Origin: Escherichia phage HY01
Length of the DNA: 64,000 nucleotides
Sequence record: NC_027349.1
Strand: one strand, 5' to 3'
Under the pieces are notes generated by a model, which saw only the letters and a program-made list of their open reading frames with translations, did not search any database and was not told the origin of the DNA. Shown piece after piece: positions 2,774 to 40,281 of this stretch. The first letter of the stretch is position 1. Each line of letters opens with the position of its first letter. Made by a program: the position numbers and the translations under genes.

Positions 2774-2791
2774 AAAGGGCCGAAGCCCTTT
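2774..2791 (-). terminator. GC-rich tetraloop hairpin (AAGGGC-CGAA-GCCCTT) at 3' end of a-gt
   Basis: Perfect inverted repeat with T-rich flank; member of a hairpin family recurring at gene boundaries in this window. Confidence 0.5.
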
Positions 2792-3992
2792 ATTTTGTAA
2801 TAATGTCAAACTGCTCTTTAAAGCAGAAGCTTGAATCTTGGTGCTGATACAAAAATTCATAAGCTTTTTCACGTTCACGGTCATAAAGAGCTCGGTCAGA
2901 TGACAGTTCTTTAATACGTTCAAATGTTGATTCCATGTCATTTTCATCAAACCAAACGATACCGCTATCATGTGAAATTAATGGAGTATTATCAACACGA
3001 AATTTTAAATTTTCGCCAGTAGATTTCCAAAATACTGGAATTGTTCCGCATGCACCAAGCTCGAGATGAGTGTATTCTAAAGAACGTTGTAGATATTTTT
3101 TATCTAATTTACTCAGCTGATAACCAAATCCGGATTTACTCATGCGTTCAAGCATTTCGCTATTTACATAACGATCGAGAATTTGCGTTGGCAAATTAGG
3201 AGCAATTTTAATTTGGTCTACTTGATGAAGACGATAATACTCGTATGGAATTCCTTTTTCTTTAATAGGAATGAATGCTGGAGAACGTTCCAGACCTTCC
3301 ATAATAGTACTTAGTCCTGCAGGTTTAAGATGTTTTTCGTGAAAATCAAACATCTGATAAAAGCCTTTCCATGTAGTAGTACGACCAATCCAACGGTTGA
3401 TATTCATGTTAATTTCAGAAACATCTTTCCAGTAAGTTGATCGAACCTTCGCAATATCCATAGGAGGCTGAAAGTTATATACAGTCGGTGCTTCTTCAAT
3501 ATCATCAAACAAAGAAACAGTTTCCGGATACCATTCTTTCATTAAAACTTTATTAAAATCACCATTATCAGAATGACTAAAAATAACATCAGCTCGACGA
3601 ACAGTTTCTTCTAATCCCAAATTTCGGCGCAAAGAAAGAGAAGAATGGTCATGTTGATAAACTACAACACGAACTGAAGGTTTAATGTTATCAATAATTT
3701 TTTTATAGTTATTAATAGTGTCTTCTTCGACTGAAGTAGCAGGAACTGAATTGATAATTAGAATATCACAATCATTTACCAGCTTAAGTGTTTTATCGTA
3801 TTCTTTTGCCAATAAAACCGGAATTGAAAATGATTTATAATCATGCGCGCAATTACGGGTAAATGATTTATCTTTAGCATAAACCAAAGTTACTTCATGA
3901 CCATTTTTAATAAACCAATCACGTTGCTCAAGAGAAAATTTAGTTACACCGCAACCTTCAAGACCTCGAGCCATAAAAATGCATACTTTCAT
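2790..3992 (-). CDS. a-gt: DNA alpha-glucosyltransferase (glucosylation of hydroxymethylcytosine DNA)
   Basis: 400 aa; N-terminus M(K/R)(V/I)CIFMARGLEGCGVTKFSLEQRDWFIKNGHEVTLVYAKDKSF and C-terminus match T4 AGT as I recall it; same length. Confidence 0.93.
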   Translation of the reverse strand: MKVCIFMARGLEGCGVTKFSLEQRDWFIKNGHEVTLVYAKDKSFTRNCAHDYKSFSIPVLLAKEYDKTLKLVNDCDILIINSVPATSVEEDTINNYKKIIDNIKPSVRVVVYQHDHSSLSLRRNLGLEETVRRADVIFSHSDNGDFNKVLMKEWYPETVSLFDDIEEAPTVYNFQPPMDIAKVRSTYWKDVSEINMNINRWIGRTTTWKGFYQMFDFHEKHLKPAGLSTIMEGLERSPAFIPIKEKGIPYEYYRLHQVDQIKIAPNLPTQILDRYVNSEMLERMSKSGFGYQLSKLDKKYLQRSLEYTHLELGACGTIPVFWKSTGENLKFRVDNTPLISHDSGIVWFDENDMESTFERIKELSSDRALYDREREKAYEFLYQHQDSSFCFKEQFDIITK

Positions 3993-4945: not shown

Positions 4946-5486
4946 ATAAAAAATCCAAACTAGGAGAATCGTCTACAACACTTTTCTTTTCAGCCCCCGG
5001 TGTTCTATAGGTTGATTCTTCGTAATGCGTCATTTTATCGTAGATGTCTTGAATAAAAGTTTCATCTACTAACGCAACCATATCGTCGTCACGACTGTCA
5101 TAGACATTGTGAACGAAGTAACTATATTTCTTTGCAACTTCCTTACGTTCTTTTTTAATACGTTGGACGAATGCATTAAAACAAGCTTGAGTTATATATG
5201 CATGTGGGTTTTTATATTTCGTTTCATCAAAATTATGAAGTCCCTTAATAGAAGCTTCTATACCATCTGCAATCATTTCTTGTTTCCAAGACTGGGTGTA
5301 TCCTGAAAAGTTGAAACGTTTAGATAAGCCTTCTGCAATAAGCATAATGGCTAATCCGATAGTATCATTCTGACGAACTACTTTATTTGGGTCTTTATTA
5401 TTTGCTAATTCTGTTTTCCAATCAATAATAGCTTGTAAAAGCTCTTTATTGTTTACGTAATTATATTTAGGCTTAGTTTCTGACAT
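4929..5486 (-). CDS. 55: Late-transcription sigma factor gp55
   Basis: Track ORF is 187 aa; start at second Met ([21 protein letters not shown]) gives 185 aa as in T4 gp55. Confidence 0.9.
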
Positions 5487-5566
5487 TTTCACCTCTTAGC
5501 TCAATTCATAGATCTATTATATCATAATATTTGAAGATCTATCTTAAAGCATAGAGGATGAATCAG

Positions 5567-25896: not shown

Positions 25897-26084
25897 TATT
25901 CTTCTACATGTTGTTTACGACCTTTCCTATCAATGAAGGTATATTCAACGAATGTTCCAATATAGTCTTTATCTACATCATGAGGACTATTAATTGGGCA
26001 TTTAGTACGGCAAATGCGTTTCCATTGACGAATAATTTCCACTTTGTTTTTAGGATCAAACGGATGCGGGCAATGTACTTTCAT
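25872..26084 (-). CDS. Cys/His-containing small protein (70 aa)
   Basis: ORF track; CPHPFD...CRTKCP. Confidence 0.45.
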   Translation of the reverse strand: MKVHCPHPFDPKNKVEIIRQWKRICRTKCPINSPHDVDKDYIGTFVEYTFIDRKGRKQHVEEYCLKVTWL

Positions 26085-26535
26085 AATCCACCACTATTAA
26101 ATCAATATCAGGAGTAAACATGTCGATTAATTTAGAAACCTTATCCCAATCACCGCCAGCAATACCACAACCTATGCGTGGAATGTAAATTACTGGTTTA
26201 AACAGAAGGGTCTCTGCCTGTAGATTTAATTCTATCATGCAGTTTACTAAAGCACCATAATCAAGATTAGGACCCGGTTCGTATTGCGTATACAGGTTAT
26301 AGCATATACCAAATCCCGTAGGACTATGTTTAAAAACAATAGACATATCGCCTAATTTATCGCGAGAACCGTACTCGGTAGTAGTTTTATCTATTTCTAA
26401 AATTTTAGGATAGGCCCTCGCTAATTGACCCGCTACACCTGAACCCATAGTATGAAAGCAGTTGCACCCGTGCGCAATAATATTACCTTGAAGAAATAGG
26501 GCGACAATATCGCCCTTGATATATTTTACAATCAT
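26056..26535 (-). CDS. Macro-domain protein (ADP-ribose binding/hydrolase fold), 159 aa
   Basis: GDI...NIIAHGCNC...GSGVAGQLA...IGCGIAGG motifs typical of macro domains. Confidence 0.7.
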   Translation of the reverse strand: MIVKYIKGDIVALFLQGNIIAHGCNCFHTMGSGVAGQLARAYPKILEIDKTTTEYGSRDKLGDMSIVFKHSPTGFGICYNLYTQYEPGPNLDYGALVNCMIELNLQAETLLFKPVIYIPRIGCGIAGGDWDKVSKLIDMFTPDIDLIVVDYESTLPASV

Positions 26536-26873
26536 CTAGTACTCAATCCTCGATTATAAGAATCTACCAAACGGTCAACCATTGAATGACAAGCGGCTTT
26601 ATCTTTCTCCTCCGCAACTGAACATTCTAAGGTATTCCACTTTTTAGCATATCGTTTTAATAAAGTATCGTTCTTGTATCTACTTGATTTATCTCTTTCT
26701 CCGTCTTTATATGCATATATTAATTTCTGCGCAAATTCAGCTTGACATGCTTTATTTTTCCCACAATAATCCGCGGCAGTACGGTTTACATACTCTCTAA
26801 TTTCAGTGTATGATGTATTTGCTAACGCAGAAAATGAAATTAATCCTACACATAAAACCAAAATTTTAGTCAT
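26532..26873 (-). CDS. Secreted Cys-containing protein (113 aa)
   Basis: Signal-peptide-like N-terminus MTKILVLCVGLISFSALA; four Cys. Confidence 0.55.
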   Translation of the reverse strand: MTKILVLCVGLISFSALANTSYTEIREYVNRTAADYCGKNKACQAEFAQKLIYAYKDGERDKSSRYKNDTLLKRYAKKWNTLECSVAEEKDKAACHSMVDRLVDSYNRGLSTR

Positions 26874-27411
26874 TTACTATTTCCAACAGTTTATTATTTT
26901 TAAGGTAGTTAGCCTTTTCTAGGACTTCAGAAGCATATTTAGAACCTGCTTTAACATTCCATCCCGAATTATAAGAGGATATTGCCTTTCTTATATCGCC
27001 CTTATGTATATTTAACCAATAAGAAAGTTCAATGTACGCCCAGGAAGCTGAATTGGACCGTTTATTCAACATTCTTTTTATTTCAGCATCGGTCATATTA
27101 TAACCAAGTTCCTTAACTCTTGCTCGCATGGTCGGCAAATAATTTTGGAACATTCCATAGGCATGATGCTTTGGTTTAGATTTTAAATTAACTCCGGCAG
27201 AGCTTTCTTGCCATAAAATAGCAGCCATTATATGACCTAATCCACTCTTGTGGATATTTTTGTGTGTTTTATATTTTCCATCCTTAGAAAATTGTTCCCC
27301 GAATTGATATGCGTAACGCATGTTATCGAGTTGGACATTACTGAAAGTATGCTCGGAGCTATGTGCCATCATTGAAATGGCCAATAGACCAGCGAGTAGT
27401 GCTTTTCTCAT
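26866..27411 (-). CDS. Secreted lytic-transglycosylase-like protein (SLT domain), 181 aa
   Basis: Signal peptide MRKALLAGLLAISMMAHS; catalytic-region motif ILWQESS and YNSG. Confidence 0.6.
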   Translation of the reverse strand: MRKALLAGLLAISMMAHSSEHTFSNVQLDNMRYAYQFGEQFSKDGKYKTHKNIHKSGLGHIMAAILWQESSAGVNLKSKPKHHAYGMFQNYLPTMRARVKELGYNMTDAEIKRMLNKRSNSASWAYIELSYWLNIHKGDIRKAISSYNSGWNVKAGSKYASEVLEKANYLKNNKLLEIVND

Positions 27412-27418
27412 GCTTACC

Positions 27419-27880
27419 TCATTGAGTTTTAATTACTGCTTTAGAAGCCTTTCCTGGTAAACGACGACTGTTAATAATTGCCATCCTGCACTGAAGCGAC
27501 GGGTCTTTGAACTTCGCATTAGGTTTACAAACTGTAAATCCAAGCCAAAGATTTCCATCTGTGATTTCTAAACGCCCAGGACGATATTCAACCCCATCAA
27601 TAAAATCCTCGTCAATGTCAGGACGCGGAGGCATACTCAGGAATTCATTAACTTCTAAAACATGGTCTTTTATTTTGTGGAATAATTCAAAAACATATGT
27701 CTCATCAATCTCCCGTTGAATTGCACGATCAAGAAGATGTTGAGAATATTTTAGATGAAACGATGAGACCCCTGCTGCTTTTGATGCCTCACGAATCTCA
27801 TTGTTAATTTGACGAAACTCCGACTCAAAGTGACGACGGAGCTTATTTCGACGGATAAAAACTTCTGTGTTGATAGTCAT
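27419..27880 (-). CDS. regB: Endoribonuclease RegB
   Basis: 153 aa, length as T4 RegB; position between tk region and denV; sequence matches my recollection of RegB. Confidence 0.8.
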   Translation of the reverse strand: MTINTEVFIRRNKLRRHFESEFRQINNEIREASKAAGVSSFHLKYSQHLLDRAIQREIDETYVFELFHKIKDHVLEVNEFLSMPPRPDIDEDFIDGVEYRPGRLEITDGNLWLGFTVCKPNAKFKDPSLQCRMAIINSRRLPGKASKAVIKTQ

Positions 27881-27907
27881 GTTATTCTCCTCTTAACTGA
27901 TAGAAAA

Positions 27908-27937
27908 ATTATACCACAGTCAAGAGGAAAAGTAAAC
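27908..27937 (-). promoter_or_regulatory. T4-type early promoter-like element (GTTTAC / TATAAT) upstream of regB
   Basis: Minus-strand GTTTAC 27937-27932, TATAAT 27913-27908. Confidence 0.45.
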
Positions 27938-27939
27938 AG

Positions 27940-28260
27940 TTATTCTTTAAATCTAATCAATTTATTCATAGACTTTGAAACTTCTGCACGAACCTCATGT
28001 AGGTTTTTGAGCTGTTCAAGACGCTGCTCATAGTAAGCAATTTCATCTTCTTCGAGACAGTCCTGTGAATCTTCTTTAAGATAACGTGCATAGTCCTGGA
28101 AAGCTTTACGGACTACTTCCTGGAAGTCATCAAGACTTTGAATTTTCTTAGGAGCAACAGATACACGACGAGGGGCAGTATAATACTCATAACCAAACCC
28201 TACGCTTAATTGAGCCATTAATATTTTTCCTCTGGTTGGAACACAGCACGACAAGCCCAC
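27940..28260 (-). CDS. Hypothetical protein (106 aa)
   Basis: ORF track. Confidence 0.5.
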
Positions 28261-28484
28261 ATACTGGCTTCTTTGAGTTTCGTTTTAGCAATAGTTAACT
28301 GATCGAGGCTTTCAGCATAATTCTTTGCGAATTCACAGTCTTCACAATTATCCAGTGCTTCCCAGAATTCATCATATAAAGCATCAAAGATAAGTCCTAA
28401 ACGAACTTCAGCGTCTTTGATAGCATTCACTTTACCGATTTTCTCTTCAGTGTGCGGCTTATAACCTTTAATGTCTTCAATCAT
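28218..28484 (-). CDS. Small helical protein (88 aa); in the position of T4 vs.4 (Acb2 anti-CBASS cyclic-nucleotide sponge)
   Basis: Assignment by synteny (second ORF after regB, two before the GrcA-like gene) and size only. Confidence 0.45.
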
Positions 28485-28698
28485 ATTCTACTTCCTCACC
28501 TGTTCCCAAATCATATTCAACTAAACGAATAGGCTCATGAATGCCATATCCTTGAACAGAAATTTCTGTCGTAGGATAAATTCCATTAATATCACCCATG
28601 TTCCACGCTTCATTAAATTGCTGTTCGCCTGAATTACTAAACCACTCGGCGAAAGCATTTAGCACATCTTTAGAACCTTCAATAATTATCTTTGCCAT
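28477..28698 (-). CDS. Hypothetical protein (73 aa)
   Basis: ORF track. Confidence 0.45.
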   Translation of the reverse strand: MAKIIIEGSKDVLNAFAEWFSNSGEQQFNEAWNMGDINGIYPTTEISVQGYGIHEPIRLVEYDLGTGEEVEYD

Positions 28699-29060
28699 TA
28701 CAAACTCTCAGTAAAGGTACGAGCGATAACGTCGCGCTGCTGTTCCGGAGTCAGAGAGTTAAAGCGAACTGCATATCCGGATACACGGATGGTCAGCTGC
28801 GGATATTTTTCCGGATGCTTAACTGCATCTTCCAGAGTTTCACGACGCAGAACGTTTACGTTCAGGTGTTGACCACCCTCAATTTTAACTGTAGGCTGTG
28901 TTTCAATTTCAATTTCACGGGCATGCAAACCATAGAAAATTTCTGGGTCTACAAAAGAGTCCTCTTTAAAAGTTTTAGAGACAATAATTCGTGCTTGAAT
29001 ACCGTCTTCAAAATAAATAGTACCTTTATGCGTGCCTTCAAGAATTTGATATGCTTTCAT
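28698..29060 (-). CDS. Autonomous glycyl radical cofactor GrcA/YfiD-like protein
   Basis: C-terminal [60 protein letters not shown] matches the glycyl-radical domain of E. coli GrcA as I recall it; N-terminal about 50 aa differ. Confidence 0.85.
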
Positions 29061-29070
29061 ATAACCCCTC

Positions 29071-29451
29071 TCAATTAGAAAATAAATTTATCCAAGATTG
29101 CTCTTTAATTAAAAATGGCTCAGAATCATATGCCATTAAACTTTGGGTAATTAGTCCTTTAAAAGGCCCATCAATAAATTCCATGGTAAAATATGGAATT
29201 TTATTCATTAATCTTGCATTAGGAGCAGTGCATAAAACTCTGCATCCTTTGAATACACCTTTTTGTAATTTGTATTGCTTAGGATAAAATTCACTCAAGA
29301 CGTTGTTATTTGCCAAAATTTCAAAATGATTCACCAATTTATTTTTAATAGTTTTTGGCGAAAAATAAAGATATTCGAAAAGTTGCGTGTCTGTCATCAT
29401 TGCATTCCGATTATGAAAAACTGTGGACGAGTAATACCACCAATGCAACAT
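29071..29451 (-). CDS. Hypothetical protein (126 aa; likely starts near 29397)
   Basis: ORF track; overlaps upstream ORF unless an internal Met is used. Confidence 0.45.
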
Positions 29452-29984
29452 TTACTATTGCAACAGTGGTGCACAGTTTCAATATGAATATCGTAAATTT
29501 TATCCATATCAGGAGATTTAACAGGCTCATCAATTATATACAAAATCCGCGAAAGCGATAAACCTCTGAACTTGCTTCCTTTATTACCGATAAAACTACG
29601 GACAGAATCGGTAAATAAGCGGAATCGAATATCATCGCCAGAATAACGAGAAAATTCTTTTTTAATGTGGCCCGCAGAAATTTTAGCGTAAGCTGAAGTA
29701 TTAGAAAGAACAATAACTGTTCCACCATCATACAGCCAATTAGCAGCAAAGTTAGTCACAGCAGTTGATTTACCGGATTGTCTGCCACCATCTAATCGAA
29801 GTGTGCAATACTGCTTGAGTAAGTCTTCAAATGGTGGGATATAATCGTTTTTACAAATTTCTTCTACTCTAGCATCAGAATGGTGTGTAAAAGCATTCAT
29901 CAGGGATAGATAAGGACCAGTTAAAAATGTTCTCATTTTATTCTCTCTAAATTTGGGCCATTCCATGGCGCATGAATTGTCCAT
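29397..29984 (-). CDS. Small P-loop NTPase (195 aa)
   Basis: Walker A GGRQSGKST and Walker B-like LYIIDEP. Confidence 0.6.
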   Translation of the reverse strand: MDNSCAMEWPKFRENKMRTFLTGPYLSLMNAFTHHSDARVEEICKNDYIPPFEDLLKQYCTLRLDGGRQSGKSTAVTNFAANWLYDGGTVIVLSNTSAYAKISAGHIKKEFSRYSGDDIRFRLFTDSVRSFIGNKGSKFRGLSLSRILYIIDEPVKSPDMDKIYDIHIETVHHCCNSKCCIGGITRPQFFIIGMQ

Positions 29985-30089: not shown

Positions 30090-30563
30090 TTATTTGAATG
30101 ATTTAACGTACTGAATAGAACCTTTACTATTTACAAAGGCAATTTTACCATTTTTATTGTACATAGTAGCAGTACGCTGATAACCATAAGTTTGTTTACC
30201 AGATTGATAACCAACTAATGCGAAATTATCTTCGCCCATTTTATTCTGTTTAGCGCGGATGCGTTCATGACCGTGTGCCATAAGAACCTTAGCATCACCA
30301 GTTGAAATTGATCTACGAGTTTTTTCATCTTCAACTGTATTAACAAAGTCGTCAAATGAATCAAATTTAGCATGGGATTTATTATACAGTTTTCCATCTA
30401 CTGCATAATTATATCCCTGTACATCCATCTCAACTTCTGTACCATCATCCAATACAGCAGTGATTTTTTGACCTTTTTTAAATTTCAAAAGATCAGTAAA
30501 AGATTCAGCAATAATTTGAGAATTAATAGCTGCTTCAGTGATAAATTCTTGATATGTTTTCAT
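30090..30563 (-). CDS. Internal-protein-like capsid-targeted protein (157 aa)
   Basis: N-terminal capsid-targeting sequence MKTYQEFITEAAINSQIIAE with prohead-protease-type L/I-x-E sites. Confidence 0.65.
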   Translation of the reverse strand: MKTYQEFITEAAINSQIIAESFTDLLKFKKGQKITAVLDDGTEVEMDVQGYNYAVDGKLYNKSHAKFDSFDDFVNTVEDEKTRRSISTGDAKVLMAHGHERIRAKQNKMGEDNFALVGYQSGKQTYGYQRTATMYNKNGKIAFVNSKGSIQYVKSFK

Positions 30564-36787: not shown

Positions 36788-36863
36788 TGGTCGAGGCAGT
36801 AGGGATCGAACCTACGACCTAGGACTTAGAAGGTCCTTGCTCTTCCTTCTGAGCTATGCCTCG
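36788..36863 (-). tRNA. tRNA-Arg (anticodon UCU)
   Basis: Manual fold of reverse complement: 7-bp acceptor, anticodon loop CUUCUAA, T-loop GGTTCGATCC, encoded CCA. Confidence 0.8.
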
Positions 36864-36867
36864 GATT

Positions 36868-36942
36868 TGGCGGACGTGATAGGATTCGAACCTATAACCA
36901 ATCGCTTAACAGGCGATCGCTCTGCCATTGAGCTACACATCC
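36868..36942 (-). tRNA. tRNA-Asn (anticodon GUU)
   Basis: Manual fold: acceptor GGATGTG/CACGTCC, anticodon stem ATCGC/GCGAT, loop CUGUUAA, T-loop TTCGAAT, CCA. Confidence 0.75.
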
Positions 36943-36946
36943 AAAT

Positions 36947-37033
36947 TGGTGGGGAGTGATGGAGTCGAACCACCCGAGTCGCAATGACAATGGATTTACA
37001 GTCCACACCGCTACCTCTACGGAATAACTCCCC
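36947..37033 (-). tRNA. tRNA-Tyr (anticodon GUA), long variable arm
   Basis: Manual fold: acceptor GGGGAGT/ACTCCCC, anticodon loop CUGUAAA, long variable arm, T-loop TTCGACT, CCA. Confidence 0.7.
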
Positions 37034-37042
37034 AAATTAATT

Positions 37043-37117
37043 TGGTGGCCCTGGGTGGAATTGAACCACCATCTGGCGATTATGAGTCGCTTGCTTGAAC
37101 CTTCCAGCTACAGGGCC
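37043..37117 (-). tRNA. tRNA with anticodon CAU (Ile-lysidine or Met)
   Basis: Manual fold: acceptor GGCCCTG/CAGGGCC, anticodon loop CUCAUAA, CCA; T4 tRNA-Ile also carries a CAU-derived anticodon. Confidence 0.7.
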
Positions 37118-37118
37118 T

Positions 37119-37195
37119 TGGTGCTGATTGACGGAATCGAACCGCCGACCTTCTCATTACAAGTGAGTTGCTCTACCTACTGAGCTAAATCAGCA
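37119..37195 (-). tRNA. tRNA-Thr (anticodon UGU)
   Basis: Manual fold: anticodon loop CUUGUAA, T-loop GGTTCGATTCC, CCA. Confidence 0.75.
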
Positions 37196-37199
37196 AAAC

Positions 37200-37289
37200 T
37201 GGCGGAGGCGATAGGATTCGAACCTATGAGTCGCCGGAGCGACTGCCGGTTTTCAAGACCGGTGCATTAAACCACTCTGCCACGCCTCC
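37200..37289 (-). tRNA. tRNA-Ser (anticodon UGA), long variable arm
   Basis: Manual fold: acceptor GGAGGCG/CGCCTCC, anticodon loop CUUGAAA, long variable arm, CCA. Confidence 0.75.
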
Positions 37290-37295
37290 AAATAT

Positions 37296-37946
37296 TTATA
37301 TATTGTTAATTTGATTTAGAATTCTTTTTGCTTGAGTATGACTTACGCCAATATGCTTAGCATATTTAGATAATTCACCACGCTTAGAAAAATCATATAA
37401 TTTAGAAATTTCTATTCTTCTTTTTCTTTCATCCGCAGAAACTTTTGCTTCGTTTGCTTTTGCTATTTTACGTTTAGCTTCTTGAGAATGAGTTTTACCA
37501 GCAAAGCCATTCTTCATTAATCCATTTGAAGACCATCCTTTTAATTTTCCGTTAGAATGTGCCTTTTTAACACCCAATGAAATTAATTCGCGTTGCTGAT
37601 CTGTCATAGGATAATTATTTATATGGTCCCATCCACCTTCACCTCCAAGTTTTAAATTATACACATCTGGTCTATTTAAAAACTCTTCTGTGACAATATT
37701 TTTCTCGGCTTCAAGCATAGATTCTTTATCATCAAAATACTCTAATATTTCTTTAGAAAAATTTTCTATACCATATTTATCTTGGGCTCTTTTTAATAAT
37801 TTACCAGAACCCATATATCCATCATCTAAATTTTCGGTAGAATGCACACCAATATAAATTTTATTATTAATTTTATTTGTTATTTTATAAAGATAAAAAT
37901 GCATATCAGTCCCTAATAAAGAACTGAGCGTCTCACGACGAGTCAT
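37296..37946 (-). CDS. segB: GIY-YIG homing endonuclease SegB-like
   Basis: 216 aa; GIY-YIG module YLYKITNKINNKIYIGVHS...GYMGSG; embedded in the tRNA cluster, as reported for T4 segB. Confidence 0.8.
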   Translation of the reverse strand: MTRRETLSSLLGTDMHFYLYKITNKINNKIYIGVHSTENLDDGYMGSGKLLKRAQDKYGIENFSKEILEYFDDKESMLEAEKNIVTEEFLNRPDVYNLKLGGEGGWDHINNYPMTDQQRELISLGVKKAHSNGKLKGWSSNGLMKNGFAGKTHSQEAKRKIAKANEAKVSADERKRRIEISKLYDFSKRGELSKYAKHIGVSHTQAKRILNQINNI

Positions 37947-37949
37947 AAA

Positions 37950-38024
<75 letters not shown>

Positions 38025-38029
38025 AAATT

Positions 38030-38118
38030 TGGTGCGAGAAGTGGGACTCGAACCCACAAGGAAATCATTCCGCAGCATTTTAAGTGCTGTGCCTTTACCA
38101 ATTTGACCATTCTCGCGC
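38030..38118 (-). tRNA. tRNA-Leu (anticodon UAA), long variable arm
   Basis: Manual fold: anticodon stem CAGCA/TGCTG, loop CUUAAAA, long variable arm, CCA. Confidence 0.75.
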
Positions 38119-38190
38119 TGGGAATAAAGGACTTGAACCTTTGCATCCTGGAATCAAAATCCAGTGCCTTACCAACTTGGCTAATTCCCA
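38119..38190 (-). tRNA. tRNA-Gln (anticodon UUG); 3' CCA not encoded, directly abuts tRNA-Leu
   Basis: Manual fold: acceptor TGGGAAT/ATTCCCA, anticodon stem CTGGA/TCCAG, loop UUUUGAU; matches the T4 Gln-Leu dimeric precursor arrangement. Confidence 0.75.
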
Positions 38191-39224: not shown

Positions 39225-39512
39225 TTACAAAAGATTTTTAGCAATAATCTTGAGATGTGCCGCAGAAATGTGTTTAGCTTTAAACAACGCAGTTTCTTCA
39301 GCAGGAGAGATAATGATTGTAGCACCATCCTTTTTAGCAGACCACCCATCACCTAGGTAAACAGTACCTTTGATTTCTTCGCCATCAACCAAGCTAATCA
39401 TTGGTTTACCTTCTCGTCCTTTATTTGCTTTAATAACTTCAGAAGTAAGAGTAGCTTCGGTAATGGTAGAAACCGGGGTAGTTGTAGAAGTAAACTCTTT
39501 GAAAGTTTTCAT
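39225..39512 (-). CDS. ipI: Internal protein I-like capsid-targeted protein
   Basis: 95 aa (length of T4 IPI precursor); N-terminal capsid-targeting sequence MKTFKEFTSTTTPVSTITEATLTSE with L/I-x-E sites; position upstream of 57B. Confidence 0.7.
   Translation of the reverse strand: MKTFKEFTSTTTPVSTITEATLTSEVIKANKGREGKPMISLVDGEEIKGTVYLGDGWSAKKDGATIIISPAEETALFKAKHISAAHLKIIAKNLL

Positions 39513-39584: not shown

Positions 39585-40281
<697 letters not shown>

Follow-up and report, generated by a model that had tools for sequence, protein, structure and literature searches.

Two known anti-CBASS genes of T4, vs.4 (acb2) and 57B (acb1), are present with unchanged proteins in a T4-like phage of Escherichia coli

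Does the small open reading frame located two genes away from regB in this T4-like genome encode a sponge for cyclic-oligonucleotide signals, and does it make, together with gene 57B, a pair of factors directed against CBASS? The preliminary description of this DNA proposed such a pair, assigning the first frame to Acb2 by synteny and size only and the second one to Acb1. Both were reconsidered here in the context of the whole analysed stretch of 64,000 nucleotides (hereafter, the window). Two stretches of 1.7–1.8 kb surrounding the two frames were 100% identical over their full length to the DNA of PEC04 (KR233165.1), a T4-like Tequatrovirus (species hy01) that infects E. coli O157:H7. The window reads along the opposite strand of this record and crosses its start at positions 37294/37295. 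The same two stretches are shared, at 95–99% DNA identity, with hundreds of further T4-like phages. The features discussed below are collected in Table 1. According to the data obtained, we consider it about 97% probable that the window carries two known anti-CBASS genes of T4, unchanged at the protein level, whose products act together against the CBASS signal.

Table 1. Features of the window discussed in the text (positions are those of the window)
Feature	Assignment	Position	Strand	Length and remarks
a-gt	DNA alpha-glucosyltransferase	2790–3992	-	400 aa; Pfam PF11440 AGT, 783.9 bits
Tk.4-position gene	macro-domain protein, homologue of T4 Tk.4/AdfM	26056–26535	-	Pfam Macro, 32 bits (cut-off 22)
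vs.3	Vs.3	27940–28218		92 aa; overlaps vs.4 stop
vs.4 / acb2	cyclic-oligonucleotide sponge (anti-CBASS protein 2)	28218–28484	-	88 aa; ATG start
vs.5	Vs.5	28477–28698	-	73 aa; end overlaps vs.4 start by 8 nt
DUF7412 gene	internal-virion-protein homologue	30090–30563	-	157 aa; phrog_3155 'internal virion protein', E = 1e-101; Pfam DUF7412, 318 bits
ipI	internal protein I (nuclease inhibitor)	39225–39512	-	94/95 residues (99%) identical to T4 IPI; PF11634 IPI_T4, 178.7 bits
57B / acb1	2H-type phosphodiesterase cleaving cyclic-oligonucleotide signals (anti-CBASS protein 1)	39585–40040	-	151 aa; ATG start

The position of the first frame was described properly: it is present where T4 has vs.4, and the order of genes around it (vs.1, regB, vs.3, vs.4, vs.5, vs.6) agrees with the reference annotation of T4. 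Its assignment now rests on sequence identity, since all 88 residues coincide with those of T4 Vs.4 (NP_049728.1) and with the protein crystallized as 'Vs.4' (PDB 7UQ2, chain 7UQ2_A; 88/88, E = 1.9e-57). The Pfam family PF24729 Acb2_Tad1_hairpin, with a curated cut-off of 27 bits, matches residues 7–83 with its full profile (1–58 of 58) at 71.4 bits (E = 7e-20), and the ligand-binding residues Y8 and F82 are kept. Thus, the alignment to Acb2, on which the preliminary assignment had been made dependent, was obtained with T4 Vs.4 and with the family profile, and in a weak form also with the structures 8H2J and 8IXZ. The frame as a product of chance, or as a mere positional analogue of vs.4, was ruled out by the 100% identity to T4 Vs.4.

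At the level of DNA the genes of the two phages are not the same. In vs.4 substitutions were found at 13 of 267 nucleotides (95.1% identity), and all 13 are synonymous, although just 18.7% of all single-base changes that vs.4 could undergo would be silent. By a simple independence estimate such an outcome has a chance of about 3e-10. The six differences registered in 57B are also all synonymous (chance about 1.5e-4), while the neighbours vs.3, regB, 57A and vs.6 each carry 1–3 amino-acid changes relative to T4. Both Vs.4 and gp57B are, therefore, under purifying selection, and the full conservation of amino acids beside 13 synonymous changes speaks for a strong one in the case of Vs.4.

Since the proteins are identical, published work on T4 may be carried over to the window, and the biochemical properties and phenotypes ascribed below to Vs.4 and gp57B should be understood in this sense. 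Jenson et al. 2023 found T4 Vs.4 as the factor antagonising type II CBASS (summary in PMC10449767); according to the same summary, binding of cGAMP was registered by calorimetry (ITC), the structure is a hexamer with three bound cGAMP molecules, and 198 homologues were counted. The sponge activity is described both in vitro and in cells, and the name Acb2 as given to the Vs.4 family by a parallel study (PMC10449767; PMC10419184). For T4 Acb2 the Y8A substitution disrupted binding of cyclic dinucleotides, and the escaper substitution F82C diminished binding of 2',3'-c-di-AMP (PMC12657218). By analogy with the identical T4 protein, Vs.4 of the window would be a homo-hexamer that binds cyclic dinucleotides and does not cleave them.

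A further question is whether CBASS is the chief target of this sponge. It may be assumed that Vs.4/Acb2 is directed chiefly at other defences based on nucleotide signals, or even that it is a net liability for the phage. T4 Acb2 binds 2',3'-c-di-AMP as well and is required, and by itself enough, to activate the Panoptes defence (guard) system; among 15 T4 mutants that escaped Panoptes, 14 had mutations exclusively in acb2/vs.4 (PMC12657218). For the Acb2 family, Cao et al. 2024 report in their title the binding of cyclic trinucleotides. We find both versions unlikely. Additional ligands extend the sponge mechanism but do not replace it, anti-CBASS activity of the identical T4 protein was demonstrated genetically, biochemically and structurally (PMC10449767), and the preservation of the whole amino-acid sequence of Vs.4 beside 13 synonymous changes argues for retention of the gene rather than for its loss.

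The second member of the pair was recognized by two H-x-T/S motifs, and exactly two were found in the predicted protein: HST at residues 43–45 (H43, T45) and HIT at residues 112–114 (H112, T114). Its 151 residues are all identical to residues 2–152 of T4 gp57B (Acb1, NP_049750.1), so that the numbering used here equals T4 numbering minus 1 and the four residues correspond to H44, T46, H113 and T115 of T4. The Pfam family PF23474 Acb1 (curated cut-off 27 bits) is matched by the whole profile, 1–144 of 144, with 202.7 bits (E = 2.6e-60). Identification of gp57B as Acb1 is thereby borne out, its 100% identity to the T4 product rules out a chance frame here as well, and loss of catalytic residues, which was considered separately, was ruled out: both histidines are retained on alignment, and both HxT motifs are intact.

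A different name for this protein is, nevertheless, widespread. RefSeq calls T4 57B and many of its homologues 'RNA ligase', and phrog_755, to which 57B belongs, bears the same label. The two HxT/S motifs are common to the whole 2H phosphoesterase superfamily, LigT included, and one could suppose on these grounds that gp57B is a LigT-type 2'-5' RNA ligase or an RNA-repair enzyme rather than an anti-CBASS nuclease. Against this supposition stand the end-to-end fit of gp57B to the dedicated Acb1 family of Pfam and direct experiments. T4 57B was identified by activity-guided fractionation of T4 lysate as the activity cleaving 3'3'-cGAMP, and deletion of acb1 abolished this activity and made the phage sensitive to CBASS (Hobbs et al. 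2022, PMC9117128). The recombinant enzyme accepted cGAMP, cUA and cAAA, its chemistry depended on the HxT/HxT tetrad H44, T46, H113, T115 and was metal-independent, and the H44A/H113A protein was catalytically dead (PMC9117128). In a transposon screen of 2025 57B/acb1 was depleted, i.e. conditionally needed, only on the host with CBASS (bioRxiv 10.1101/2025.11.20.689424). A ligase or repair function of gp57B is, thus, extremely improbable, and the label 'RNA ligase', passed on among 2H proteins on the level of the fold, is contradicted by experimental data.

The start of 57B deserves a separate remark. In T4 the annotated gene begins one codon earlier (ATGATG, 152 aa), while here the corresponding letters are ATAATG and the product has 151 aa. 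At the junction of 57A and 57B (window 40036–40046) T4 has GAATGATGG, which contains the TGA stop of 57A and two tandem ATG codons of 57B, whereas the window has GAATAATGG. A single change of G to A converts the 57A stop to TAA and eliminates the first ATG of T4 57B. The comparison suggests that the second ATG of T4 57B is the real start of Acb1.

Taken together, the two proteins would act on one signal in two ways. In a host with CBASS the infection is sensed, a CD-NTase produces a cyclic oligonucleotide, and this product switches on a cell-killing effector. Acb1 (gp57B), as a metal-independent phosphodiesterase of 2H type, would hydrolyse the signal, while Vs.4/Acb2, a small helical protein assembling into a hexamer, would bind cyclic dinucleotides tightly, three per hexamer, without their degradation, and such sequestration would raise the signal threshold for effector activation. 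With one protein destroying the signal and the other sequestering it, the effector may be kept below its activation threshold. On the strength of the sequences we infer that both genes are probably expressed in this phage and act as they do in T4. No evidence contradicting the anti-CBASS identity of vs.4 and 57B was found.

That vs.4 is expressed is made probable by the layout of its operon, which resembles that of T4. The scan for promoters and terminators revealed no enrichment of promoters around vs.4 (13 sites against 11.7 expected in shuffled sequence), and terminators were likewise not enriched. The scan turned out to be uninformative for expression of vs.4, because its sole strong site precedes regB. 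This site, the best sigma-70-like one of the region, is located at positions 27908–27936 on the minus strand, just upstream of regB and downstream of vs.3, and combines TTTACT, a spacer of 17 nt, TATAAT and the TG of an extended -10 element. Its location fits with regB having its own early promoter, apart from the vs.8–vs.3 transcription unit.

The close packing of vs.4 with its neighbours makes it necessary to consider whether Acb2 operates alone. The last 8 nt of vs.5 belong also to vs.4 (ATGATTGA), and at the opposite end the stop of vs.4 overlaps the start of vs.3 (TAATG). Such arrangement is typical of translational coupling, and since neither Vs.5 nor Vs.3 has a known function in Pfam or PHROGs, one can imagine that they are functional partners of Acb2 and make up with it a single anti-defence module. 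Other phages speak against this. In two straboviruses of greater distance, phiEap-3 (Slopekvirus) and KpnM6E1 (Jiaodavirus) vs.4/acb2 homologues with 51–64% identity (positions 1995–2264 and 1995–2276 of the compared stretches, respectively) follow directly after an ORF of 363 nt, with an overlap of 1 nt and without any ORF of vs.5 size between them, and in KpnM6E1 vs.4 is then followed directly by regB, with vs.3 missing. The T4 reference itself has a frameshifted vs.5 that stops 36 nt short of vs.4, and still its Vs.4 is active on its own, both in vitro and when expressed singly (PMC10449767, PMC12657218). Partnership of the three proteins within one module is, therefore, highly improbable, and Vs.5 and Vs.3 as obligatory partners of Acb2 were rejected on the comparative grounds provided by phiEap-3 and KpnM6E1. 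We also find it very doubtful that Vs.5 and Vs.3 are further anti-defence factors co-translated with Acb2, that is, members of a small counter-defence cassette specific for Tequatrovirus: neither frame adjoins vs.4 in the Slopekvirus and Jiaodavirus phages, and the T4 reference has Vs.5 in a frameshifted form. The 363-nt ORF is annotated in KpnM6E1 as a glycyl-radical cofactor (vs.6), and from its adjacency to vs.4 in both phages it follows that the pair vs.6 and vs.4 is what is conserved at this locus, whereas vs.5 and vs.3 may be present or absent.

The reference Vs.5 of T4 has 58 aa (5382–5558 of the compared T4 stretch) and shares only its first ~16 residues with the form of 73 aa present here. 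The difference in length comes from a single-base indel: the window has TTTCGCCGAG, and T4 has TTTCG-CGAG, with 1 nt deleted. The 73-aa form agrees over its whole length with phrog_1986 (76 positions), and for this reason we suspect that vs.5 of the T4 reference represents either a variant with a frameshift or an error of sequencing.

Some labels of the PEC04 record in this region also need attention. Homologues of vs.1, vs.3, vs.7 and vs.8 (window about 26866–29984) are all named there 'endoribonuclease RegB domain-containing protein'. These labels seem to have spread from the true regB next to them, since in the gene tables no alignment with regB was found for any of the four. No RegB domain was detected by the Pfam scan in vs.3, the one of the four that was scanned. 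The protein of vs.1 reads like a secreted transglycosylase.

A dense anti-defence repertoire was ascribed to the window as a whole, and it was found in place with one caveat, which concerns the internal proteins and the macro-domain protein. The gene a-gt is present and is labelled in the PEC04 record 'putative alpha-glucosyl-transferase'; ipI was found as well. The T4 genes ipII and ipIII are absent from the window. The internal-virion-protein homologue listed in Table 1 begins with MKTYQEFI, which we take to resemble the capsid-targeting leader of T4 internal proteins. Its gene is found near the T4 site of ipII/ipIII, but adjoins denV from the direction of vs.8, while ipII and ipIII of T4 occupy the interval from denV to e, on the opposite side. 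All this points to a set of injected internal proteins different from that of T4. The macro-domain protein has only 58% identity to T4 Tk.4 over 155 aa, while genes flanking it are 97–100% identical to their T4 counterparts, so that this gene looks like a local mosaic replacement. T4 Tk.4 (AdfM) was recently reported to be an anti-DarTG2 factor (bioRxiv 10.1101/2025.11.20.689424). The NCBIfam model of the DarG antitoxin gave a weak match to the macro-domain protein, 27.7 bits, far below its cut-off of 250, which fits with the role reported for the T4 protein. By analogy, an anti-DarTG2 function may be carried over to the protein of the window, which is plausible, but weaker than in the case of the two anti-CBASS proteins.

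Between the two loci the window contains a cluster of 9 tRNA genes (36788–38190), including those for Asn and Tyr, both of which are missing from the T4 annotation of the cluster; tRNA-Pro was not found in it. Exactly at the T4 site of tRNA-Pro, between tRNA-Ser and tRNA-Gly, there is a gene for a GIY-YIG homing endonuclease (37296–37946, minus strand, 216 aa) recognized by the Pfam models GIY-YIG and SegE_GIY-YIG and by phrog_314. A stretch of 275 nt within this gene is 98.5% identical to segB of T4, which is located elsewhere in the T4 cluster.

The functions of Acb1 (2022) and of Vs.4/Acb2 (2023) were established on these exact T4 proteins, therefore the finding as such is already known. 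Its discovery value is small: by tblastn homologues of Vs.4 were registered in 1,234 phage records and those of Acb1 in 1,484, so that each is known from over a thousand sequenced phages, and most carriers are straboviruses of enterobacteria. What can be improved is annotation. In the PEC04 record both vs.4 and 57B are named 'hypothetical protein', and RefSeq keeps 'RNA ligase' for 57B. The first name of vs.4 is no assignment at all and the second one, given to 57B, denotes a fold family, so that neither is a conflicting result. PHROGs labels Vs.4 as 'unknown function', and its labels on both Vs.4 and 57B are outdated; no NCBIfam model was found for either protein. In practical terms, a phage of E. 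coli O157:H7 that is equipped both to degrade and to sequester the signal should withstand CBASS well. Owing to Acb2, the same phage should be vulnerable to guard systems of Panoptes type. Both expectations are relevant for the choice of therapeutic or biocontrol phages.

Beyond T4 the closest systems with resolved structures are more distant. Acb2 of Pseudomonas phage ('p26'; 8H2J, 8IXZ and related entries) belongs to the same PF24729 family and aligns with Vs.4 end to end (residues 4–85), but this alignment is marginal (E about 0.03). The N-terminal IKGY and the C-terminal RA..QP motifs are common to both, and the two proteins are distant members of one family. For gp57B the structures 7T26/7T27 represent an orthologue from a different phage, which is clearly related, though not identical: residues 8–148 align with E = 4e-62, and both HxT motifs coincide. 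With T4 itself the correspondence extends from proteins to their genomic places. The order ipI, 57B, 57A, gene 1 agrees with the reference annotation, 57B being situated in both phages between 57A and ipI and encoding in both the HxT/HxT catalytic tetrad, while vs.4 of T4 occupies the identical place between vs.5 and vs.3, upstream of regB, and overlaps vs.3 likewise by 1 nt.
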